Source: Gammaproteobacteria bacterium (lineage in GTDB: Bacteria > Pseudomonadota > Gammaproteobacteria > CAKMZV01). Taken from it: a DNA stretch of 64,000 nt. Shown piece after piece: positions 5,120 to 62,421 of this stretch. The notes beneath the pieces were generated by a model. It ran no database searches, was not told the origin of the DNA, and was given only the letters and a program-made list of their open reading frames with translations. The translations under genes were made by a program, and so were the position numbers. The stretch's first letter is position 1. Each line of letters starts with the position of its first letter. The DNA lies in assembly GCA_965277625.1 (NCBI GenBank), contig OZ255827.1:1806913-1870912 (forward strand), given 5' to 3'.

Positions 5120-6799
5120 TTACGATGAAGGCGTACTATTTTCCGTAGAGGCTTCGGTTTCTGTATTTTGACCGCCAGCATTTGTCTCTTGGGTGTATTC
5201 CTCAAATAATTGTTCAATGGCCTGATACGTTTCTGGATCGGCTTTATGGGTCAATCCCTCAAACACCAGTCGATTGATGCCCGATTTTTTCAATGCAATG
5301 AGGTTGCCCAAGGCCCTAGTAAAATTGATCGCTTGATCTGGGTATAAGATCAGCATGGCGCGAATGATGGGCTTCGTTAAGCGTGGTTTCAACAACACCA
5401 ATGTTTCCACAATCTCTTCGGATCGATAGCCATTAAATAATGCCATGTGCTTTTCTATGTGCTGATGCGTTTTCGAGGGTGAAAAGGCGATAAGTGAGCC
5501 CAATGCATCAATGCTAACACTGCGGATTTTATTCAATTTTGATTCACTGAAAGGGTCTTGGGTAATCCCTGGCTGCAAAATTGGATAGGGGATGGTGTAG
5601 GGAATGCTTTCTTCATCATTGGCAAAATTTCTACTCACTATCACTCGATAAATCATGAACGGAATGCTCAAGCCCATTAATCCAATAAAATAAATAAGCA
5701 GCCCACTGGGGTTAAACCATTCCATAAATGTCGAGGCGATGATTGGCCCGACAATTAAACCGAAACTGTTTAGCAAGAGTAAGCTACTCATAGCTGCTAC
5801 GGCTTTTTCATTGTCAATCTGGTTGAAAATGAATTTAACGCTCACCGGATAAATACAACTGAGGCTACCACCCATGATAAACATCACCACCAAATAGTAG
5901 GTCCAAGGTGATTCTCTCAAGGTAAATGAATATGCAATAATCGCCGTCACAAAAGCAATGATCACCAAACCAAGGATGACTCTGCGTTCGTCAAATTTAT
6001 CTGCCAGACGACCCACAGGTACTTGGAAAAAGATCGAGCCACCGGTTGCCGTCGCCAAAAGAATGATAAATTGAATATCTTCTACACCCAACCACAGCAC
6101 AAACAATGACATCAAAGTATATAAAGCGGACAGGGCCAATCCAGAAACAATCGACATAATCGCACCACTTGGGGTATCTCTGAGCATTTCTATGATGGGT
6201 AAATGGGCTTGATTCTTTTCCACTTCTGGTGATAGATAGCGACTCATGAGCAATGGAATGATCGAAACATTCAACAGCAATGCAATCATACTAAAAGCTC
6301 TTGTATCCCACGGATCATAAAACAGTGCAAACATTGGTGCACATAGAATGCCCAAGGCAAAAAATAATTGATACATGGCAAAAATGGTGCCTCTGCTGCT
6401 GCGATCGCCAATGACATTGATCCAGCTTTCTAATGTAATATAAACAATGGCCATAGAAACACCCACTAAAAACCGCATTACACCGTTAAACCAAATGGCA
6501 TTGAAGAATATGTGTAATATGGCAACCAAAGCGATGATGGTCGCAACGGTGGTATAGCTTCTGATATGTCCCACTCGGGATATGATTTTATAACCGTACA
6601 AACTGCCCACCAAGAAGCCCGCTGAATAGGAAGCCATGACCCAACCGATGGTACCAATGGAGACGCCATTCAACTTCATAATTAACGGCAAAATGATCAC
6701 CAAAGTATTGTGTGCCAAAGAAGCAAATAAAATGGCAATGAGGATACTTTGAATGCGAGAAAAATTCTGCATCAATGGGGATGACAAAAACTTAAACAT
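5120..6799 (-). CDS. MFS transporter (YcaD-like) with C-terminal soluble extension
   Basis: ISRVGHIRS, ESWIN, QVPVGRLADKFDERRV MFS motifs; about 150 extra hydrophilic residues at the C-terminus. Confidence 0.85.
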   Translation of the reverse strand: MFKFLSSPLMQNFSRIQSILIAILFASLAHNTLVIILPLIMKLNGVSIGTIGWVMASYSAGFLVGSLYGYKIISRVGHIRSYTTVATIIALVAILHIFFNAIWFNGVMRFLVGVSMAIVYITLESWINVIGDRSSRGTIFAMYQLFFALGILCAPMFALFYDPWDTRAFSMIALLLNVSIIPLLMSRYLSPEVEKNQAHLPIIEMLRDTPSGAIMSIVSGLALSALYTLMSLFVLWLGVEDIQFIILLATATGGSIFFQVPVGRLADKFDERRVILGLVIIAFVTAIIAYSFTLRESPWTYYLVVMFIMGGSLSCIYPVSVKFIFNQIDNEKAVAAMSSLLLLNSFGLIVGPIIASTFMEWFNPSGLLIYFIGLMGLSIPFMIYRVIVSRNFANDEESIPYTIPYPILQPGITQDPFSESKLNKIRSVSIDALGSLIAFSPSKTHQHIEKHMALFNGYRSEEIVETLVLLKPRLTKPIIRAMLILYPDQAINFTRALGNLIALKKSGINRLVFEGLTHKADPETYQAIEQLFEEYTQETNAGGQNTETEASTENSTPSS

Positions 6800-51115: not shown

Positions 51116-51203
51116 GCCCGGGTGGCGAAACTGGTAGACGCAACGGACTTAAAATCCGTCGGTGTAAAACACCGTGCCGGTTCGACTCCGGCCCCGGGCA
51201 CCA
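51116..51203 (+). tRNA. tRNA-Leu (anticodon TAA)
   Basis: GCCCGGG acceptor stem, ACGGA-CTTAAAA-TCCGT anticodon arm, long variable arm, GGTTCGACTCC, CCA end; TATAAT at 51079 upstream. Confidence 0.96.
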
Positions 51204-54023: not shown

Positions 54024-54752
54024 TTAGTATTTCCAATTTTCATGGGCTAATGGCGCTTGATTTAACTCTTTCTTAATAGTCCGCCATTGCGGCAGAATAC
54101 GATCCATGTGAGACACAAATTGATCATTATGGGTGCGTTCTAAAAAATGAACCATTTCATGGACGACAATGTACTCAATGCAGTTTATCGGCTTTTTTAT
54201 AAGCTCTAAATTAAGCCATATTCTCTTAGGTATAGGATTGCAACTTCCCCATTTTGTTTTCATTCTTTTGATACCGTAGGCGTTTACCTGTAGCCCAGAT
54301 ATAGTCTCCCACTTTCTAATAATACTGGGTAAAATTTGCTTCAGTTCCTTTCGATACCAGTGTAAAAGCAGTTTTTCGCGCTCCTCTAACCCCGTATCCT
54401 TATTGATACTCAATACCAGTGTTTTTTTATTCCTAATTTCGATGAAGGGACGTTTTTCGGTATAAACAATGTCTAACAAATATCTACGGCCAAGGTAATA
54501 GTGGCTCTCTCGAGTGATTAACTCTCTTACACTTTGCCTTGATTGATCTGCAAATGACTTTATTTGACGTTTGATCCAACCAAATTTTGAGATGATTGCC
54601 ATTCTTACTGCTTCATCATCAATAATTTCTGGAACTGCGATCCTAACCGACCCTTCAGGTGGATAGACTGCCAAGTGTAGGTTCTTTATTTTCTTTCGGA
54701 TAACCTTCACAGCTAATCCATTTACGGTCATTGTGCTCTCATTAATATTCAC
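54024..54752 (-). CDS. YgjP/DUF45 M48-type metallopeptidase associated with type I R-M
   Basis: KNLHL.VYPP, MKTKWGSC, YIVVHEMVH (HEXXH). Confidence 0.88.
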   Translation of the reverse strand: MNINESTMTVNGLAVKVIRKKIKNLHLAVYPPEGSVRIAVPEIIDDEAVRMAIISKFGWIKRQIKSFADQSRQSVRELITRESHYYLGRRYLLDIVYTEKRPFIEIRNKKTLVLSINKDTGLEEREKLLLHWYRKELKQILPSIIRKWETISGLQVNAYGIKRMKTKWGSCNPIPKRIWLNLELIKKPINCIEYIVVHEMVHFLERTHNDQFVSHMDRILPQWRTIKKELNQAPLAHENWKY

Positions 54753-57700
54753 TTTGATTTTTCACTATCTCAAAAGTTTTATTTACGATGAGTTCAAGAT
54801 CAAGAGGTTTGTAACCTTCATAAATATGTTTATCATCAGCTTGATTCAAAAAGTAATTCACTATCACCTCATTGATTTTTTGTTTTATTTCTTTCTCTTT
54901 TAAAAAATTTCCTCGCCAACTGTCCTTTTTGGTATCTTTCACAACTGCATCAACTTTAAGAGCAAGTTTTTCATCTTCGTCCAAGTTGTCATAGAGCGAT
55001 TTTTGGGCAGGTGAATTTAAGGATGAGGGGTAAGAGCCATTCATTTCTGAGCCTAATACTTTCTCTGATAATTCAACGATTCTCTTCAAATAATCTTTAT
55101 ATTCGAGCGCCTGCTCTTTACGCTCCTGAATGAGTGCTTCAAGCAACTCTGACAGCTTGTCAAAGTACTTAGGATTAACGGGTTGCTCGTCAATGATGAC
55201 TTTACGAATATTGTTCTCAATGGTCTCTGCAACGGCCTCATTGCTATTTCGAATGCCTTCAGGCAATTCATTGATTGCAGATTCTCCACGCTTTACAATC
55301 AGCTTAATAAGGCTAAGATCATCAAAAGCCGATATTTTTTGGCTTTCTTCCGCTCGGATATATGAGTCAATTAGATGGCGCATAGCAGGTTCATACACCT
55401 TCAGGTCTATGTAATCACCGCTGGCCATTTTAACTTCGGTTCGCACGCTCTCGTAATGTTGAACTTCAACTTTAATCGCCTCAATTTCTTCTGGGTGATA
55501 GCCAGCCTCTGCCATTTCATTAGCCAAAGCGGCATAAGCACGTATAAAAGAAGCGCTATGCTTGTAAAGAACTAATCTGCGAGATTCATTGTCTTTCAAA
55601 GCATCTTTATCAGACGTATCCTTTGCACAAAAATACCGAATATAGGCAACTGTATCTTTTGGTAGAGCAACATTATCACAGAGAGCTTTTACTGTTTCAC
55701 GTGTCTCATCCAAGCGTTCTTTCGCTTTGGTTAAGCGATCTTTAAGCAATCCAGCAACATCTTCTTGATCGTACTGATCAAATGCCTCAGAGGTATAGTC
55801 TCGAACTGAGTTTTCCAAACTTTTGAACAAATCCTTGTAATCAATAATGTAGCCATATTCTTTGTCTTCACCATCCAAACGATTAACTCGGCAAATTGCT
55901 TGAAAAAGTCCATGATCTTGCATTTTTTTGTCAATGTAAAGGTAAGTGGCGGATGGTGCATCAAAACCCGTTAGCAATTTATCAACGACAATCAACAAAC
56001 GCATCTGACCAGGATCATTGATAAACTGTTGCTTAACCTTGTGTTCAAATTCTGCTACACGATTGACTGCTTGATCTGCTGGTTCACCAAAATGATTAGC
56101 TAACATATTGCGGTAAATAGCATATTTTCGCAGTTCCTCTGTAGAGCCTTCACCACTCTCCTCATTCTTTATCTGTTGAGGTGAGGGTTTGTATGAGGTA
56201 ACAATGGCACACTTACCAGAAAGGTCGGTTGTACTAAAAAATTCAAAGTATTTGCACGCTTGATAAATACTACCAGAAACTAACATGGCATTCCCACGAC
56301 CATCGGCGAGACGATCCCGTGTTCCTAGGTCTAATAAGATATCCTTACCAATCATATCGAGGCGGGATTGGGAGCTGAGGACCTTTTGCATGGTACCCCA
56401 TTTTTTCTTCAACTGAGCACGCGCATAGTCATTTAATCCTTTTGTTTTGGCTTCAAACCACAAATCAATCTTATCTGGAGCCGAAATTATTTGATCAATA
56501 TCCCTCGCCTCATAGCGCAAATCCACTATCACGCCATCTTTAACAGCTTCATCAAATTTATAAGTATGAATATATGGGCCAAAGACTTCAAGGCTCCTCT
56601 GTTTGTATTTCTTCAATAATGGTGTCCCAGTGAAACCAACAAATATGGCATTTGGTAAAATCTTTTTCATGGCCGAATGCAATTTGCCCGATTGGGTTCG
56701 GTGGCACTCATCTACAAATACATAAACATCACCCTTCGCCTCGAAGTTAGACATCATGTTATTGTTAATTTCTTCCATGAATTTATCGATATCCTTATCA
56801 GATAATTCGTCACTATCTGAACCACCAAACTTATGGATAAGCGAGCAGATCAGCCATTGATCGGTTCTATTGAGTGTATGAACAAGATCCATACCGCTGT
56901 TTGTGCGATAAATATCTTCATTTACCCCTCGGAAAACTTTTTCGATCTGTTCGTCCAATTCAATTCGGTCAGTAATGATAAGAACACGTGAATCCCTGAC
57001 ATTTTCTCGCATCCATTTGGCCAACCAGACCATGATCAGACTCTTACCCGAACCTTGTGTGTGCCAGATAATACCACCTTGACGGTGACGAATACAATTC
57101 TGCGCTTTCTTAACGCCGAAGTATTGGTTCTGGCGACAAGTTTTTTTCACACCAGCATCAAACACGATGAAATCGTGGATCAATTCAAGTAATCGATCTT
57201 TCTTGCACATTAATGATAAATGTTGATCCAGTTTATAGTTGCCAATGCCACCATCCTCTTTCCACTCCAAATAATATTTTTCACTTGTTTCAATGGTTCC
57301 GTAACGCAAGCCTTGCGTGTCATTGCCAGCCATCACCAGCTGCATGGTGGTAAAGAAAGGACGAATAAAATCTTTACGCTGGTTAAGTAAATTTTGTCTA
57401 ATGCCTTCAGTCAGACCCACAATGGATCGCTTTAGCTCAATGACACCAATGGCAATACCGTTTAGATACAGAATAATATCTGGGCGCTTGATACTCTGAA
57501 CCTCTATCGTGACCTCTTCGGCAATGGCAAAGTGATTGTTGTCAGGATTTTTCCAATCAATTAGCCAGACTGTCTGATTTTGCTCCCCAACATCCTCTTT
57601 GACTTTGATACCATATCGTAATAAGCCATATACTTCCTTATTGGCATCATAAAGGTTTTGACCATCCCCCAATGCAGCAGCTCGATCAAGCTCACGCACG

Positions 57701-57927
57701 GCGCGTTTAACCAACTTATCACTATAACCTTGTTTTTTTAAAAATGGCGTCAGTAGGCTTAGCTCGATATTCTGATTATTATCGCGGTCTTTCCAATCAC
57801 CCAGATACTCGTAACCAAGCTGATCTTTGAACAGTTTTATAATACGATTCTGAGTTTCACGTTCTTTTGCGCCGACCTTACTCTTCAATTGAGAATTGTG
57901 AGTGGATAATGGATAATTATTTTGCAT
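54742..57927 (-). CDS. hsdR: Type I restriction enzyme R subunit
   Basis: RPDIILYLNG...IELK nuclease motif, WHTQGSGKS, DECHR, GFTGTP, LLTGFDAP, QAICRVNR. Confidence 0.96.
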   Translation of the reverse strand: MQNNYPLSTHNSQLKSKVGAKERETQNRIIKLFKDQLGYEYLGDWKDRDNNQNIELSLLTPFLKKQGYSDKLVKRAVRELDRAAALGDGQNLYDANKEVYGLLRYGIKVKEDVGEQNQTVWLIDWKNPDNNHFAIAEEVTIEVQSIKRPDIILYLNGIAIGVIELKRSIVGLTEGIRQNLLNQRKDFIRPFFTTMQLVMAGNDTQGLRYGTIETSEKYYLEWKEDGGIGNYKLDQHLSLMCKKDRLLELIHDFIVFDAGVKKTCRQNQYFGVKKAQNCIRHRQGGIIWHTQGSGKSLIMVWLAKWMRENVRDSRVLIITDRIELDEQIEKVFRGVNEDIYRTNSGMDLVHTLNRTDQWLICSLIHKFGGSDSDELSDKDIDKFMEEINNNMMSNFEAKGDVYVFVDECHRTQSGKLHSAMKKILPNAIFVGFTGTPLLKKYKQRSLEVFGPYIHTYKFDEAVKDGVIVDLRYEARDIDQIISAPDKIDLWFEAKTKGLNDYARAQLKKKWGTMQKVLSSQSRLDMIGKDILLDLGTRDRLADGRGNAMLVSGSIYQACKYFEFFSTTDLSGKCAIVTSYKPSPQQIKNEESGEGSTEELRKYAIYRNMLANHFGEPADQAVNRVAEFEHKVKQQFINDPGQMRLLIVVDKLLTGFDAPSATYLYIDKKMQDHGLFQAICRVNRLDGEDKEYGYIIDYKDLFKSLENSVRDYTSEAFDQYDQEDVAGLLKDRLTKAKERLDETRETVKALCDNVALPKDTVAYIRYFCAKDTSDKDALKDNESRRLVLYKHSASFIRAYAALANEMAEAGYHPEEIEAIKVEVQHYESVRTEVKMASGDYIDLKVYEPAMRHLIDSYIRAEESQKISAFDDLSLIKLIVKRGESAINELPEGIRNSNEAVAETIENNIRKVIIDEQPVNPKYFDKLSELLEALIQERKEQALEYKDYLKRIVELSEKVLGSEMNGSYPSSLNSPAQKSLYDNLDEDEKLALKVDAVVKDTKKDSWRGNFLKEKEIKQKINEVIVNYFLNQADDKHIYEGYKPLDLELIVNKTFEIVKNQSEY

Positions 57928-57990
57928 TGTTATAACTTTTGAGAATTGAGAGCACTCAATTGAGAATGGATAATGGAGTATTGATAATGA
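57887..57990 (+). repeat. Two degenerate heptamer arrays (ATKGAKA) at the hsdS/hsdR junction
   Basis: ATTGAGA ATTGTGA GTGGATA ATGGATA (57888-57915); TTTGAGA ATTGAGA gcactca ATTGAGA ATGGATA ATGGAGT ATTGATA ATGA (57938-57990). Confidence 0.85.
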
Positions 57991-58018
57991 TTTGTAAGGG
58001 TTGTAATGAACTCTTTCT

Positions 58019-59911
58019 TCATGGCGTGTAATGTCCGAATAAATCTAAAGATTTGTCTATAGCCTTTTGAATATTGGCATCTGAAAACAGCTCCTTAGAA
58101 AGTTTTTTATTCCATTCTTTATTGGATTGAAGAACATTTTTAATTTGAGAAACTGTAACTTTCCTATTTTGTTCTCTTAGGTCTTGCATTGCCATATCAA
58201 CAGTAGTCCATAACTCCAATCGTTCATTCGTGGTAAACCTAAACCGTTCTAACCAATCAAGCGATTTAATCTCAAACCATTTATCAAAATATTTTTTTGC
58301 CTCATCAATGTCGTTTCCAGCGATGAATCCCTTATTTTTTACGTTCACGTATTTTTTATTTATAGAAATTGTTTCAGCACCTCCATATCTAGTCTGAGGA
58401 TAGTAAGGCCCTGCCACTTTTTTAAGATATTGTTCGGTGTTTTGTTGAACACAACGGCGTAAGAGATAAGAAAATTTAGTATAACGAAAACGATGTAGTG
58501 GATATTGTTCGGAACCAAACCTGTCAGCAAGCACTGCAATAATAACTGCATCTTCAAAATGTATATTATGTTTAGTCTTTGACATTTGTGCTTGCATGGC
58601 AGGTTGAATCAATCGGGTTTTTCCAGTCAAAAGTTCCTGCATCATTCCAGTTTTGAGACTACGGTCCTTTTCTAGGCGTTGCTCAAGAGCATCAATTTCG
58701 TAATCCATGTCGGAGAGAACACTCGCAATCGCCTTCTGCTCCTCTAGCTTTGGCACATCAACCTGAAGCCTCGCAATGTCTTTTTTAGAAAACTCTAGAA
58801 AAGTAGAGCCGATAGAAAATTGCAAAAATTTATCTTTTAAGGTCAGCACCTTGTAATACATAAATTCATTGTCTACAGCATTGCAGACTAAGGACTTAAA
58901 CCCTTGGTTAGTTGCAATTTTTGTGTTGGCGATTTTAACTTCACCAATGGTAGCTCTGCTGCATAGTAATAGACTGCCTACTGGCAATATATTTGCAGTA
59001 CTTTTAGAGAGGCCAAGAGAAGTAATATTTCGATTAGTCTTGTCAATATACTTACCTGAGGTTCCAGTAATATCTGAAGGGGTACACCAAGGTATATGCC
59101 CTTTAAACCAAAAAGCAGTACTTGAAGTGGACGGCGTTCCTCCACTAACAATTTCACATAGAGAAGAAATGGGCATTACATCCCAATCCTCTGGAATAAT
59201 CCCAATATTCGTTTGTTTATAACCTTTTGAAGCATTAAAACCTTGCAGGCGTTTTTTACCAGTGAGGAGTTGTTGCATGGTAGCGGTTTTCATATCGCGC
59301 TTCTTGGCGATCAATTTTTCAAGGCTATCAATCAGCCCATCCACATCCGACAATGCCGCCGCAATCGCCTGCTGCTCATCAAAATTCGGTAGTTTTACTG
59401 GAAAAGTTTTTAAGTCAGTGCCATAGAGGTGATAAACTGTTGTACCGGAAATTCTTTTCATTACCTCTTCTTTGTTTAATCTAATTAAGTAACTTAAGAA
59501 AACCCCATTAACCTTTTTCCGTTCTTTAGCCCTGATTATTAAAACATCTCCACCTAGAATTACCCCATCTTGATTGATACAACTGGCTTTAGCCAAACCG
59601 TTTGGTGTCACATCTGAAGTCGGCATAAGGACATCATTTGATTTAGACAAAACTGATTCTGACTTGTTTTGGTATGTTCTTGATTTTATTTCTGTTATTT
59701 TTTCGAGGTAATGAGTAAACAATTCTCCATAATGGAGGCATTTATAGGGAGCATCATCAAATATCACTGATTTAGGCAGCTTTTTTCCTTTAAGGAAGTC
59801 AAAAAGATCACCTAATTCATATTCCTTCCACTCCTCTGAATTGAACCCAAAATCAGTCTTTTTGAATTGATGATTTTCTTCATTATCCATTTTCAATTCT
59901 CCATTCTCCAT
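58019..59911 (-). CDS. hsdS: Type I R-M specificity subunit with ~195-aa C-terminal extra domain
   Basis: Two TRD and conserved-helix units (EQQAIAAALSD...MQQLLTGKKRL; EQKAIASVLSD...MQELLTGKTRL), then an extension; TAATG overlap with hsdM. Confidence 0.93.
   Translation of the reverse strand: MENGELKMDNEENHQFKKTDFGFNSEEWKEYELGDLFDFLKGKKLPKSVIFDDAPYKCLHYGELFTHYLEKITEIKSRTYQNKSESVLSKSNDVLMPTSDVTPNGLAKASCINQDGVILGGDVLIIRAKERKKVNGVFLSYLIRLNKEEVMKRISGTTVYHLYGTDLKTFPVKLPNFDEQQAIAAALSDVDGLIDSLEKLIAKKRDMKTATMQQLLTGKKRLQGFNASKGYKQTNIGIIPEDWDVMPISSLCEIVSGGTPSTSSTAFWFKGHIPWCTPSDITGTSGKYIDKTNRNITSLGLSKSTANILPVGSLLLCSRATIGEVKIANTKIATNQGFKSLVCNAVDNEFMYYKVLTLKDKFLQFSIGSTFLEFSKKDIARLQVDVPKLEEQKAIASVLSDMDYEIDALEQRLEKDRSLKTGMMQELLTGKTRLIQPAMQAQMSKTKHNIHFEDAVIIAVLADRFGSEQYPLHRFRYTKFSYLLRRCVQQNTEQYLKKVAGPYYPQTRYGGAETISINKKYVNVKNKGFIAGNDIDEAKKYFDKWFEIKSLDWLERFRFTTNERLELWTTVDMAMQDLREQNRKVTVSQIKNVLQSNKEWNKKLSKELFSDANIQKAIDKSLDLFGHYTP
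59876..59911 (-). repeat. Heptamer array forming the first codons of hsdS, inverted relative to the 57887-57990 arrays
   Basis: Minus strand ATGGAGA ATGGAGA ATTGAAA ATGGATA ATGAAGA = MENGELKMDNEE. Confidence 0.85.
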
Positions 59912-62421
59912 TACAACTCCAGCCCCATCTTCTTCAAGTGTGCTTCTACACGCTCCGAAAATTTAGAAACCTTTTCGGTCAGTTCTGGCATGGGGTGAGC
60001 ATAGCGTTCTTCCAACTCTTTCACGCGGTTTGCCAAAGTATGGGTGACGCGCTCAACTTCACCAGCGACATCAATGCTGAGACGAGCAAACCATTTGTCG
60101 ATCACAACTAACTCTTTAATGTCTTCAACACTTAGCTTAGCGTAATGAGACACAATTTTCTTATTAAGCTCTATTTGCTTAGACTTGATTTCGGAGGCAA
60201 GCGCATTTTCTTTAATAAATATAATTTCAGCTTCTACCAACACCTCCCATTCTTCTTTATTATCATTATCAATTTCCCGTTTTCCATTATTCTTTGTTGA
60301 AATTGCCCTCATACGATCTATTAGGCTGGTTTTGGTCAGGTTGCCTTTGTCATTCTTGGCTTCTTCCAGCAAACCTTCCTCGCCACTGTTTTCCTCGATC
60401 AACGCATCAATTTCCCCCGCAAGCGTTTCTCGCTGAGTTTCTAGCTTATCAATGGCTTGTTTCTCTTGCGCATAATACCGCTGTACAATCAAGGCTGGCG
60501 GGATCAAGTAAGCCTTGAATTTTTCAGTTTTTTTGCCCGATCCAATAACGATATCTGGAGTTTCTTTAATTTTTTTATTTTTGTGCTTTTCATCAGTAAT
60601 CGGGTGCAATTTTGCGGCATCTTCCCAACCTTTGCTTGAAATCTGATAAACATCATCTTGCATAACGTCAGACCAGTAATTCATCAAAAGCTGATAAATA
60701 TCGTATTTGTCGATCAGTGGAATCACAGCAACAGTTGCCAGGAGATCTTCAGAGATATTCCAGATCACCTCTTTTGGTTTACAACCTTGTTTAAGCGATT
60801 TTAAATAGCGTCCATGTTTGTCTTTCCAAAATATCAAAGTGTCTTTAGCCTCATGGGCAAATGCTTGATATTCATGAGACTCCATTATTTTGGTTTTAAC
60901 TTGATTGGCTGACACACGGGCAATCAAATAGTCAGTGCTTCCATTCTGCTTAAAAAGCGCTTCCCTTGTGGCTGTGAACTCATTCCAGTAGCGCTGTAGA
61001 TCATCAATATCTCGTTTGGGAATACCCCCTTTCAAATGAGCGGTCAGGTCATGGGTGTCAGCTTCTTCACCGCTATCAATATAGCGTGGCAGATTAAGGC
61101 TATAGTCGTTTTTTGGATCGGCGATTTCAGACAGCGGTACTGAGCGTGAGAAGCCCTCTATTTCTATCACCTTATTAAATACATCGACAATTTTATGGAT
61201 GTCTTGTTCGCGCAAACGGTTTTTATTCCCATCCTTGATAAAACCCTTGCTTGCATTGATCATGAAAATGCCTTTGCGTGATGTGGCATGCGACTTATCC
61301 AGCACAATAATGCAGGCTGGGATACCTGTGCCATAAAACAAATTGGCAGGCAGACCAATAATGCCTTTTATGTAGCCACGCTTCACCGCTTCTTTACGGA
61401 TGGACGCCTCAGCATGGCTTCGAAATAAAACTCCATGAGGCAAAATGACCGCGCCTTTTCCATTACTCTTTAATGAGTGGATAATGTGCAAAAAGAAAGC
61501 GTAATCACCGTTCTTTGTTGGTGGTACGCCGTAATCAAATCGCCCATAGGGATCAAAGATAGTTTGTGTGTATTCATTCCTCGCAAAGCCAGAATCCCAA
61601 GATTTTGTTGAAAATGGCGGGTTCGCTACGATGAAGTCAAAACGCTTAAGAGAATTCGGATTTTCATCTTCTTTGAAGTGAGGGTTTGATAGAGTATTGC
61701 CATTGATGATATCATAAGTAGCAGTAACCTGATTGTGCAATATCATATTCATTTTAGCCAGAGCGGTGGTTGCAATATCTTTTTCTTGCCCATAGATGGT
61801 CAAACCGCTTGGGGCTTCATCTGATGCTTTCAACAACAAAGAGCCCGAACCGCATGCGGGATCGTAAACGGTTTGATTTTGTCGAGTATCTTTGCCAATA
61901 CCAATCACTTTTGCCATAATGCGCGAGACTTCGGCAGGTGTATAGAATTGTCCCTTACTTTTACCGCTTTCTGTAGCGAAATGGCGCATCAGGTATTCGT
62001 ATGCATCGCCGAGCAAATCATCACCCTCTACTCTGTTGTTACGAAAATCAAGGTCATTAAAGATGGAGACCAACTTGGTAAGGCAGTCCTGCATATCCTT
62101 TCCTTTGCCGAGTTTATCCTCATCATTGAAGTCGGCAATATCAATCACACCTTTTAGGCCGTTGGATTCAGCCAGCTTCCCGATGGCCTTATTGATTTTA
62201 TCCCCGATTTCTTTATCGCCCCTCAGTGCAACCAAATCAGCAAAGTGACCGCCTGGGGGTATGTCTATTAATGAGCCTTCTTTGCCCTGCTGATCTGAAA
62301 CGTATTTTATAAATAAAAGCGTCAGCACATAGTCTTTGTACTGAGAGGCATCCATCCCTCCTCGTAATTCATCGCAACTTTTCCAAAGTGAGCTGTATAG
62401 TTCTGATTTTTTAATTGCCAT
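59911..62421 (-). CDS. hsdM: Type I R-M methyltransferase subunit (m6A)
   Basis: LW.SCDELRGGMD, GQFYTP, YDPACGSG, NPPF, PHGVLFR, LNLPRYID. Confidence 0.97.
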   Translation of the reverse strand: MAIKKSELYSSLWKSCDELRGGMDASQYKDYVLTLLFIKYVSDQQGKEGSLIDIPPGGHFADLVALRGDKEIGDKINKAIGKLAESNGLKGVIDIADFNDEDKLGKGKDMQDCLTKLVSIFNDLDFRNNRVEGDDLLGDAYEYLMRHFATESGKSKGQFYTPAEVSRIMAKVIGIGKDTRQNQTVYDPACGSGSLLLKASDEAPSGLTIYGQEKDIATTALAKMNMILHNQVTATYDIINGNTLSNPHFKEDENPNSLKRFDFIVANPPFSTKSWDSGFARNEYTQTIFDPYGRFDYGVPPTKNGDYAFFLHIIHSLKSNGKGAVILPHGVLFRSHAEASIRKEAVKRGYIKGIIGLPANLFYGTGIPACIIVLDKSHATSRKGIFMINASKGFIKDGNKNRLREQDIHKIVDVFNKVIEIEGFSRSVPLSEIADPKNDYSLNLPRYIDSGEEADTHDLTAHLKGGIPKRDIDDLQRYWNEFTATREALFKQNGSTDYLIARVSANQVKTKIMESHEYQAFAHEAKDTLIFWKDKHGRYLKSLKQGCKPKEVIWNISEDLLATVAVIPLIDKYDIYQLLMNYWSDVMQDDVYQISSKGWEDAAKLHPITDEKHKNKKIKETPDIVIGSGKKTEKFKAYLIPPALIVQRYYAQEKQAIDKLETQRETLAGEIDALIEENSGEEGLLEEAKNDKGNLTKTSLIDRMRAISTKNNGKREIDNDNKEEWEVLVEAEIIFIKENALASEIKSKQIELNKKIVSHYAKLSVEDIKELVVIDKWFARLSIDVAGEVERVTHTLANRVKELEERYAHPMPELTEKVSKFSERVEAHLKKMGLEL

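Follow-up and report, generated by a model that had tools for sequence, protein, structure and literature searches.

In a 64,000-nucleotide stretch of a gammaproteobacterial genome (contig OZ255827.1, positions 1,806,913 to 1,870,912; hereafter the window), the hsdS gene of a Type I restriction-modification (R-M) operon is bracketed by tandem arrays of degenerate heptamers, one at its 5' end and two of inverted orientation just past its stop codon. On balance, we read these arrays as orphan arms of heptamer-array stem elements, in which forward and reverse-complement arrays close a stem around a small four-helix-bundle gene, and the bracket around hsdS as probably incidental. Judged by their units and distribution, the arrays belong to a dispersed heptamer family and are not specific to hsdS. 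As far as we found, the setting, with arms like those of the 23S rRNA intervening sequences (IVSs) at the junctions of a Type I operon, is apparently undescribed, the kind of repeat being already known; in open-access papers and preprints we found no account of heptamer arrays lying at Type I junctions, and none of such arrays as a general flank of genes of the four-helix-bundle family PF05635.

Anatomy of the arrays

An array of ATKGAKA units on the coding strand is called forward here, and one of TMTCMAT units on that strand reverse. The features of the bracket, in the order of transcription, are:

59876..59912, minus strand: 5' array (forward), 5.3 units, period 7 with 80% matches in Tandem Repeats Finder (TRF)
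57991..58022, minus strand: remnant of a Bro-N-domain gene, its first 10-11 codons (MKKEFITTLT), with homology ending where array A begins
57958..57990, minus strand: array A (reverse), starting 29 nt past the hsdS stop codon; the best partner of the 5' array
57918..57957, minus strand: decayed heptamer units between arrays A and B, containing the ATG at 57927 that opens the hsdR open reading frame (ORF)
57887..57917, minus strand: array B (reverse), ending at an in-frame TTG (57888-57886)

The preliminary description of this DNA had hsdS open with five ATKGAKA-type heptamers, on which the sequence and TRF agree (on the coding strand ATGGAGA, ATGGAGA, ATTGAAA, ATGGATA and ATGAAGA), and placed two reverse-complement arrays just past the hsdS stop, which are present at 57958-57990 and 57887-57917. 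The 5' array begins inside the hsdM stop codon (TAA, 59913-59911) and covers ATG 59911 and ATG 59890; only one pair of its adjacent units is identical, the overall unit match being 80%. On the other side of hsdS, TRF reported arrays A and B as period-7 and period-14 rows at 57903-57917 and 57958-57989. The gap of about 40 nt between them consists of decayed units that are out of register by one base. A direct-repeat family, D1/D2, has three copies, with a D2 spacing of 71 (10 x 7 + 1), and array A, the gap and array B, 104 nt together, can be read as one old array of about 15 units. The inverted arms are 82% complementary over 33 nt and 81% over 31 nt.

The same description had noticed no comparable arrays elsewhere in the window, and TRF and pattern scans agreed and extended this to the whole source genome (G000; 2,106,115 bases, 44.0% GC). 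Period 7 was found in 3 of the 14 TRF rows for the window, every one at the hsdS locus, and genome-wide TRF (score 36) gave three period-7 arrays, namely the 5' array and two of unrelated units, AGTTTAG and AATAAGA. All seven genome matches to three ATKGAKA units with at most 2 mismatches fell at the hsdS locus (reversed control pattern, 0), as did all seven positions with a four-unit score of at least 23/28 (best elsewhere, 22).

A dispersed family of heptamer arrays

Rotated to TAATKGA, the unit differs by one base from the TAACTGA repeat known from the literature, and TAATTGA itself is tabled as a one-base variant with the reverse-strand peptide SIINYQL (MacGregor 2015, Table 3, PMC4679880). 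According to that paper, TAACTGA direct repeats occur in Beggiatoaceae, Cyanobacteria and Bacteroidetes, mainly in intergenic positions just 5' of start codons (PMC4679880). The window arrays likewise consist of tandem 7-nt units and abut stop and start codons. The exact TAACTGA unit is absent from them, their units being TAATGGA, TAATTGA and GAATGGA, 1-2 bases off, and instead of many copies per genome there is a single array locus in 2.1 Mb.

The phylum to which Nodosilinea (locus L047) belongs was sampled with 151 genomes, and 30 of these match three ATKGAKA units with at most one mismatch, with as many as 389 matches in one genome. Genome G121 (3.3 Mb) mixes ATGGATA, ATTGAGA, ATTGATA and ATGGAGA as the window does, and 22 of the 23 arrays in 260 kb of it are intergenic. 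Its forward arrays start -11 to +7 nt from the upstream stop codon (8 cases) and its reverse arrays lie 5-10 nt 5' of a start codon (4 cases). The same two placements, forward at a stop and reverse at a start, are seen in the window, with the 5' array on the hsdM stop and array B ending at the aligned hsdR start. A general link between arrays and Type I systems in cyanobacteria was rejected, as none of 30 array loci sampled, one from each genome with 1.5 kb on either side and probed with the window proteins at E <= 1e-3, adjoined Type I genes.

Four-helix-bundle genes between paired arrays

Degenerate heptamer arrays had been said to flank four-helix-bundle inserts often, with none present in the window, and both statements held. 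Among the 20 best-scoring PF05635 genes from 20 genomes (G298 and second copies left out), 11 had period-7 arrays (at least 17/21) within 150 nt on both sides and 13 had flanks complementary at z <= -3 (30 mononucleotide shuffles). These elements (L278-L297) lie between the cistrons of ordinary operons. Their arm units vary by genome and are matched within the pair (GACTCGG/CCCGAGT, GTGATGG/CCCATCA, GTTCTGA/AACTCAG, CGTCCCT/CGAGGGA), a pattern that we read as covariation at the level of the whole arm.

PF05635 genes were present in 75 of the 401 sampled genomes of the host's class (G298 included in this count), that is, in 9 of 15 array-bearing genomes versus 66 of 385 others. The source genome has none, and the best match in a search of the window for a remnant had an E value of 2.9. 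In G003, a genome of the host's own family, a PF05635 element has the units TAATGGT/TAATTGT; its neighbours are, judging by their N-terminal sequences, presumably moxR-like and DUF58-like ORFs.

Three genomes of the class (G364, G343 and G203) carry the element inside a Type I operon of common order: hsdM, a forward array, the PF05635 gene, forward and reverse arrays, hsdS, again forward and reverse arrays, RhuM/Fic, hsdR and ygjP. The cargo of the G364 element (L272:5802-6283) is a 120-aa ORF matching PF05635 (23S rRNA IVS protein, four-helix bundle) at E 1.1e-26. Its forward array a follows the hsdM stop, forward b and reverse c precede hsdS, and forward d and reverse e follow it, with a 40-nt GC-rich loop between d and e. 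Arms a and c pair at -34.1 kcal/mol versus -18.0 +/- 3.6 for mononucleotide shuffles, 0 of 200 of which reach that value. The cargo-less d-e spacer forms one long hairpin (-51.7 kcal/mol, z -4.1, 0/200), and the b-c pair alone is weak (z -0.5). No Rfam family reached its gathering score in L272, L273 and L274, the loci of G364, G343 and G203.

Arrays at the junctions of other Type I operons

The ATKGAKA pattern was found in 16 of the 401 class genomes, the source genome included, and in 5 of the other 15 (G203, G343, G364, G427 and G476) arrays lie within Type I operons. G203, G343 and G364 share one island type with 87-94% identical DNA and are placed in three different families; the near-identity spans hsdM, the four-helix-bundle element and the arrays, and the hsdS recognition domains differ, a pattern that points to a single R-M island having spread horizontally in the recent past. 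In G427 the Type I system is of another family and has a reverse array ending at the hsdR start, and in G476 an hsdS fragment and RhuM/Fic fragments are each followed by an array. The five genomes thus amount to about three independent cases besides the window, which would be far above the small share of a genome that Type I operons occupy; a formal enrichment test was judged unsafe given kinship and transfer among the array-bearing class genomes.

At 83 Type I loci (L010-L092) scored with a threshold of at least 23/28, arrays were found in five: L010, L041, L047, L039 and L079. L010 and L041 have the same Planktothrix-type sequence, with (TCAATTA)11 directly 5' of the hsdR ATG. A second direct array lies beyond the Uma2 gene in L010; in L041 a cut ORF of the Uma2 kind abuts the array and the contig stops before any second array. 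In L047 (Nodosilinea) the array lies 85 nt 5' of hsdR. L039, from a deltaproteobacterial metagenome-assembled genome (MAG), has a forward array at the hsdM/hsdS junction like the window, with no reverse array in 19 kb, and in L079 the unit is different and the array is off-junction.

Each half of the window arrangement therefore has counterparts: a forward array lies at the hsdM/hsdS junction also in L039, L233 and G203/G343/G364, and a reverse array before hsdR also in L010/L041 and G427 (directly) and in L047 (at 85 nt). The window-type bracket, forward at hsdM/hsdS and reverse at hsdS/hsdR, was absent from all other loci examined. L233, G364 and G343 have local forward-reverse pairs, G043:C330 has two direct arrays around hsdS, and L104 (G041:C25) has a reverse array in the hsdS 5' end. 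As a side observation, the cyanobacterial Type I operons L103/L106 (G043:C330), L104 and L012 have small genes inserted between hsdM and hsdS. Those of L103/L106 and L104 look like a DUF3368/PIN-like gene with a UPF0175-like partner, with arrays at the neighbouring hsdS ends; those of L012 are annotated in the record as XisH/XisI and Uma2, and L012 has no arrays.

Closest relatives and the hsdS/hsdR slot

Relatives of the operon were drawn from a scan of one genome per species, with the best 80 loci kept. The five nearest (L013, L014, L015, L016 and L017; 72-79% identity in the best aligned HsdR segment) share the order hsdM-hsdS-hsdR-ygjP and have no arrays. Four of the five have a Bro-N gene of 283 aa between hsdS and hsdR (PF02498 at E 2.5e-11 for the L013 protein), and L015 has none. 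DNA homology to all five ends at 59920-59923 and restarts at 57887 (at 57877 in L015); between these points the matches are confined to the conserved parts of hsdS. In the window's Bro-N gene the arrays take over from codon 11. The slot between hsdS and hsdR holds varied cargo elsewhere: Bro-N in L013 (7160-8011), a CAP12/Pycsar-type TIR-domain gene in L017 (6444-7163), AbiEi/AbiEii in L039 (6151-7828) and RhuM-Fic in G364 (L272:7677-8669).

A cyanobacterial donor of the operon was considered and is not supported as such: the closest HsdR relatives are proteobacterial MAGs without arrays, and G003, from the host's own family, has a four-helix-bundle element with near-identical units.

Pairing potential of the arms

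The suggestion that the arrays could pair in the mRNA stood as far as pairing itself goes. RNAduplex gave -37.6 kcal/mol for the 5' arm region with the A/B region, versus -25.6 +/- 3.7 for dinucleotide shuffles of the 5' arm (0 of 500 reach it) and -26.2 +/- 3.7 when the 3' region is shuffled instead (2 of 500). No other part of the operon RNA pairs with the 5' arm as well as the array A and B segments do (-37.1 and -36.3; next, -32.2), and the self-folding of the 5' arm region and the A/B region is unremarkable (z -1.6 and 0.07). The specificity of this pairing did not hold up: the arms match each other at 0.82 and 0.81, and when the 5' arm is set against 77 family members from unrelated genomes its match averages 0.77 (sd 0.07, maximum 0.94), with 23% of them at 0.82 or better. 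The window arms would thus pair because both belong to one unit family. As they match no better than unrelated arrays, and as no other locus examined repeats the bracket, we take the bracket to be incidental.

Orphan arms as the favored reading

An intact element consists of an upstream stop codon, a forward array, a PF05635 ORF, a reverse array and a downstream start codon, the reverse-complement arrays being able to close a stem around the ORF in the build of the RNase III-cut 23S rRNA IVS. Intact elements and cargo-less hairpins occupy the Type I junctions of this operon family in several unrelated genomes. At the window locus, a forward arm would have been left between hsdM and hsdS, now providing the stop codon of the one and the 5' end of the other, and a long, decayed reverse arm before hsdR, where it replaces the body of the Bro-N gene. 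Two junction elements would each have lost an arm or their cargo, so that hsdS ended up between a forward and a reverse arm. The arrays would grow and shrink by 7-nt slippage and serve as patches of microhomology permitting deletion and module exchange. A variant of the hsdM/hsdS junction in public sequencing runs (below), with a forward array, 13 nt and a reverse array, is the product expected if a four-helix-bundle gene were deleted between direct arrays. The anatomy, the kinship of the arrays, their distribution and their ability to pair are observed; from these comparisons we infer both the history of loss and the absence of a dedicated function in the window.

Several points weigh against this reading. 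The topology of the window is exactly that of an intact element, with hsdS in the place of the four-helix-bundle ORF, and two independent losses are a less economical account than one functional design would be. The window duplex, at -37.6 kcal/mol, is as strong as the G364 four-helix-bundle duplex at -34.1. Arrays A and B carry none of the listed differences in a co-occurring haplotype that has 26 in the roughly 430 nt of the hsdR 5' end, an invariance that could reflect constraint and could equally reflect recent recombination. No PF05635 remnant was detected in the window or the genome, which makes the former intact elements a matter of inference, and the comparable loci are few, three of them being of one island type.

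Strain variants and recombination

A second explanation, which we consider rather unlikely, is that the arrays are recombination junctions, sites at which operon modules are inserted, deleted and exchanged through register-free microhomology. The homology breaks relative to the five closest relatives, at 59920-59923 and exactly 57887, coincide with the array edges, and the Bro-N gene is displaced by arrays from codon 11 on. Array-flanked cargo is varied, including the four-helix-bundle gene, Uma2 in Planktothrix, and the hsdS and RhuM fragments of G476. A role of long arrays in rearrangement was also proposed for the TAACTGA repeats (MacGregor 2015, PMC4679880).

Further evidence on both sides comes from the contigs of three public runs (one study, two samples), which were compared with 57400-60500 and in which rare forms are invisible. 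Loose ends coincide exactly with both borders of the 5' array, at 59880/59881 and 59912/59913; at 59881 the variant continues with 13 nt and then a reverse array, forming a cargo-less hairpin at the hsdM/hsdS junction. One haplotype has 29 listed differences, 26 of them in 57445-57871, none in 57872-58010 and 3 further on, and a 480-nt haplotype-identical block begins at 57872, at the edge of array B. Array indels were absent from the contigs of the three runs, as were strand-changing or excision joints within 57400-60500.

The same contigs contain two replaced joints, 58757-59180 with 437 other letters (X3) and 59384-59847 with 474 other letters (X1, X2), both of which are recognition-domain swaps with their ends in conserved parts of hsdS. 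The swapped-domain hsdS variants are found at lower or comparable depth in the runs. These variants show that several specificities coexist in the source population. Comparison of G343 with G364 gave a similar picture: the stretch that begins in hsdM, takes in the four-helix-bundle gene and its arrays and reaches into hsdS is 91-94% identical, the two recognition domains (L272 6347-6806 and 6983-7400) do not match, the central conserved region is 94% identical, and the stretch from the 3' end of hsdS across the hairpin and into the following gene is 84% identical. Array b of G343 is 14 nt (two units) shorter than that of G364 and G203, a two-unit indel that fits recombination at arrays. Since the swap breakpoints lie within hsdS, both in the runs and between G343 and G364, specificity swapping does not use the arrays.

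The idea that the arrays mark the ends of a swapping or inverting specificity cassette thus lost its core, as the observed swaps break at recognition-domain borders within hsdS and no strand-changing joint was seen; what survives is that some mosaic boundaries fall at array edges, so that the arrays may play a passive part in recombination. By a hand tally these number about 3 of roughly 14, versus about 1 expected, which is weak. The inverted arms share no perfect complementary stretch longer than about 10 nt, which is too short for efficient RecA-dependent recombination. No recombinase is encoded among the four operon proteins, the contigs show neither strand-changing nor excision joints, and 0 of 30 sampled cyanobacterial arrays adjoin Type I genes.

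The RNA-stem explanation

Quite unlikely, in our estimate, is a working RNA stem, in which the 5' arm would pair with array A or B in the hsdM-hsdS-hsdR transcript as IVS arms do. The duplex would mask the hsdS start region and the hsdR leader or be cut by RNase III, with the outcome that the three cistrons are uncoupled or hsdS is silenced, for instance during establishment in a new host. The duplex energy relative to shuffles and the rank of the A/B segments as best partners across the operon RNA speak for this explanation, as do the topology, shared with the four-helix-bundle elements whose arms co-vary across genomes (13/20; -34.1 kcal/mol in G364), and the invariance of arrays A and B in the divergent haplotype. 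In the IVS of Coxiella burnetii, the RNase III cut in the stem falls at the first heptamer repeat (PMC4990558).

Set against this, the complementarity does not exceed that between unrelated arrays of the family. Mismatches and a 7-nt bulge interrupt the helix, leaving about 11 bp as the longest unbroken stretch, which is marginal for RNase III. The loop would be 1.9 kb of translated mRNA with the 5' arm beneath initiating ribosomes. The bracket occurs at no other locus examined, the closest relatives lack arrays and Rfam gave no match. RNase III-like processing, as the preliminary description had proposed, is reasonable by analogy with IVS stems; that a working IVS-type stem was transplanted onto hsdS, with its arms cut by RNase III, we consider quite unlikely.

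Slippage and coding constraint

We regard as very improbable a contingency locus in which 7-nt slippage at the hsdS 5' end would shift the frame and toggle hsdS. The 7-nt unit is not a whole number of codons, the array falls within the first codons of hsdS, related arrays show indels in 7-nt steps, and the repeat number of the Coxiella IVS varies (PMC4990558). On the other side, only two adjacent units are identical at a unit match of 80%, the contigs of the three runs from one study show no array indels, and a second in-frame ATG lies inside the array.

Hardly credible is chance or coding constraint, under which the 5' array would be the coding sequence of a conserved HsdS N-terminus that happens to resemble the downstream repeats: L039 and L233 do encode a similar N-terminal peptide (MDNGQLKK) from similar sequence, but among 58 motif-bearing HsdS N-termini only one (L039) is preceded by a strong array (at least 20/21) within 75 nt, M-E-L-K-P-G-Y-K is the N-terminus usually seen, no other site in the genome scores 23/28 or more and identical units are non-coding at other junctions, so that the pattern scans and the N-terminus survey leave this explanation close to refuted.

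Start codons of hsdS and hsdR

The second downstream array had been described as encoding the HsdR N-terminus, which is true of the ORF, in that the frame from ATG 57927 spans array B, and less so of the protein, since the aligned start is TTG 57888 and translation of the array is unproven. Reverse-oriented arrays have no stop codon in any frame, and the hsdR ORF from ATG 57927 therefore crosses array B whether or not it is translated. The opening of the relatives' hsdR, ATG ATG AGT AAA GTT, aligns with TTG AAG AGT AAG GTC of the window at 57888. The PADLOC Type I nuclease profile aligns from residue 17 of the hsdR ORF, and in a tblastn search of plasmids, among the 15 matches listed, 7 begin at residue 16 and 2 at residue 13. 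The start of hsdR is thus probably TTG 57888, and the annotation should probably be moved there. As for hsdS, the PADLOC specificity-subunit profile aligns from residue 5 and the N-termini of the nearest relatives' HsdS are about 8 residues shorter; its start could be either ATG 59911 or ATG 59890.

The arrays also resemble sigma-70 promoters (TTGAGA-17-GATAAT, 9-10/12), at 57889-57988 on the plus strand and 59910-59882 on the minus strand, and three or four overlapping plus-strand sites of this kind aim antisense into the hsdS 3' end. A promoter role was rejected: the 6 promoter-like sites, 5 of them in arrays, are not above shuffles (7.1 +/- 2.5), and the sense-strand site would initiate transcription downstream of both hsdS ATGs.

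Operon and genomic setting

The arrays sit in a single operon on the minus strand at 54.0-62.4 kb of the window (hsdM, hsdS, hsdR and a ygjP-type gene), identified as a Type I R-M operon by hsdM, hsdS and hsdR together (Pfam; PADLOC Type I profiles). The genes and the neighbouring tRNA gene are:

59911..62421, minus strand: hsdM, 836 aa (PF02384 at E 2.9e-102, and PF12161)
58019..59911, minus strand: hsdS, 630 aa (PF01420 at E 2.8e-49, in two stretches corresponding to two target-recognition domains)
54742..57927, minus strand: hsdR ORF, 1061 aa from ATG 57927 (PF04313, PF18766 and PF22679)
54024..54752, minus strand: YgjP/SprT-like metallopeptidase gene, the final gene of the operon (PF01863 at E 6.7e-56)
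51116..51203, plus strand: tRNA-Leu(taa) gene, bordering the low-GC variable region that carries the operon

An island of about 51.2-63.4 kb, starting at the tRNA-Leu gene, has 35-40% GC versus 44% for the genome. The hsdS region matched 2 of 41 genomes, the source genome itself and, over 51 nt, G004; neither of two same-genus genomes has similar DNA. In same-genus G001 the island flanks are 97% and 95% identical and lie about 4.05 kb apart, versus 12.2 kb in the window. From the low GC content, the absence from same-genus genomes and the shorter G001 gap, we conclude that the operon resides in a variable, foreign-looking island beside tRNA-Leu. The 2.3-kb hsdS region matches the source genome one time only, giving a single hsdS copy. 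Pfam identified no recombinase among the four operon proteins scanned; Rfam gave no family at E <= 1 across 57500-60300, and the hsdS-hsdR spacer had no blastn match in a plasmid collection.

In G003, the genome from the host's family, one array of the ATKGAKA type was observed at C6 (L277), 5273-5307, about 2.3 kb from a homologue of the FAD oxidoreductase gene that flanks the window island (63406 onward). This proximity may be a coincidence or may reflect a common variable region.

A DarG-like extension of HsdS

After the two recognition domains, HsdS continues for about 190 aa (58022-58600, minus strand) into a C-terminal extension that is not a usual part of the subunit. Profile searches relate it to the DarG antitoxin, whose C-terminal half it matches in PADLOC (E 7e-8) and, below the cut-off, in NCBIfam (E 1.9e-4); it also matches the C-terminal part of one Type I methylase profile. 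Pfam gave nothing above noise for the extension, and a PDB sequence search gave matches to the HsdS part only. A scan of the four operon proteins revealed nothing DarT-like. In a large protein collection the extension has five relatives, each fused to the C-terminus of an HsdS; a scan of metagenomes gave 111, of which the best 80, 41-52% identical, were kept. The arrays were considered as companions of this extension and rejected as such, since in the best 80 metagenome loci (571 kb) only L233 has an array and L232 a weak match.

Implications

The locus connects three things that have been described separately, namely the dispersed heptamers of cyanobacteria and sulfur bacteria, the inverted arms, with their heptamers, of rRNA IVSs that carry a four-helix-bundle ORF, and the cargo junctions of Type I operons. 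For the window alone the practical result is modest, the bracket being most likely incidental. Even if the arms are only scars, they would still be useful in tracing horizontal transfer and the gain and loss of modules by defence operons. Should the RNA stem be real, stems of heptamer arrays would process RNA between cistrons as portable modules, carried along with defence operons and marking the sites at which cargo genes are swapped. If the arms act on RNA, the ratio of methylase, specificity and nuclease subunits could be set from one transcript, and the long-unexplained four-helix-bundle/IVS elements would gain a testable role outside rRNA.

Comparison with known systems

In phase-variable Type I systems, such as the pneumococcal and mycoplasma ones, inversion shuffles several hsdS copies through repeats within conserved regions, usually with a recombinase nearby. 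Inverted repeats associated with hsdS and a specificity that varies within the population are shared with the window, which differs in having one hsdS, repeats outside the gene body and no recombinase among the four operon proteins. An invertible hsdS shufflon was rejected on the grounds of the single hsdS copy, the lack of an operon recombinase and the lack of a strand-changing contig joint. Repetitive extragenic palindromes and bacterial interspersed mosaic elements (REP/BIME) are intercistronic imperfect palindromes in operon spacers, and the cargo-less forward-loop-reverse hairpins of G364 and G343 are similar to them; the heptamer elements differ in their tandem heptamers, in a unit that varies by locus and in often carrying an ORF.

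Convergent GGGAATC heptamer pairs in Xanthomonas lie on opposite strands as potential stem-loops, with 70-75 pairs per genome (PMC4692102). They share with the window nearby heptamer arrays on opposite strands; they differ in being G-rich, in having been studied as G-quadruplex formers and in a unit unrelated to the window's (PMC4692102). In the text of that paper, as far as it was available, the terms 'four helix' and 'S23' occur 0 times.

The closest match for the repeat itself is the TAACTGA family, which shares tandem, intergenic 7-nt units abutting start codons, stops in all frames in the forward direction, reverse peptides of the type ..NYQLS.. and a patchy distribution suggesting horizontal spread (PMC4679880). 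In that family, direct arrays are numerous and dispersed within a genome, and the genome described in detail has a single inverted pair (PMC4679880), whereas the window has the three arrays of its whole genome in one operon, where they form an inverted pair. The terms 'restriction' and 'hsd' occur 0 times in the available text of PMC4679880.

The closest match for the build is the 23S rRNA IVS. In Coxiella burnetii, a 28-bp terminal stem is cut by RNase III, the S23p ORF lies in the loop, tandem GACAGAT heptamers, whose number differs among strains, stand just before the ORF start, and the cut at the first heptamer repeat removes the ribosome-binding site of the enclosed ORF (PMC4990558). The window differs in enclosing hsdS, over 1.9 kb and with no PF05635 ORF in a loop of about 0.35-0.45 kb, and in lying in a protein-coding operon, not rRNA; its arms are degenerate, at 82% complementarity, versus a near-perfect 28-bp stem in Coxiella (PMC4990558). 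In the related Type I operons of G364, G343 and G203 the enclosed ORF is a PF05635 gene. Common to the IVS and the window are reverse-complement arms that can close a stem around an ORF, with heptamers directly before the start of that ORF (PMC4990558).

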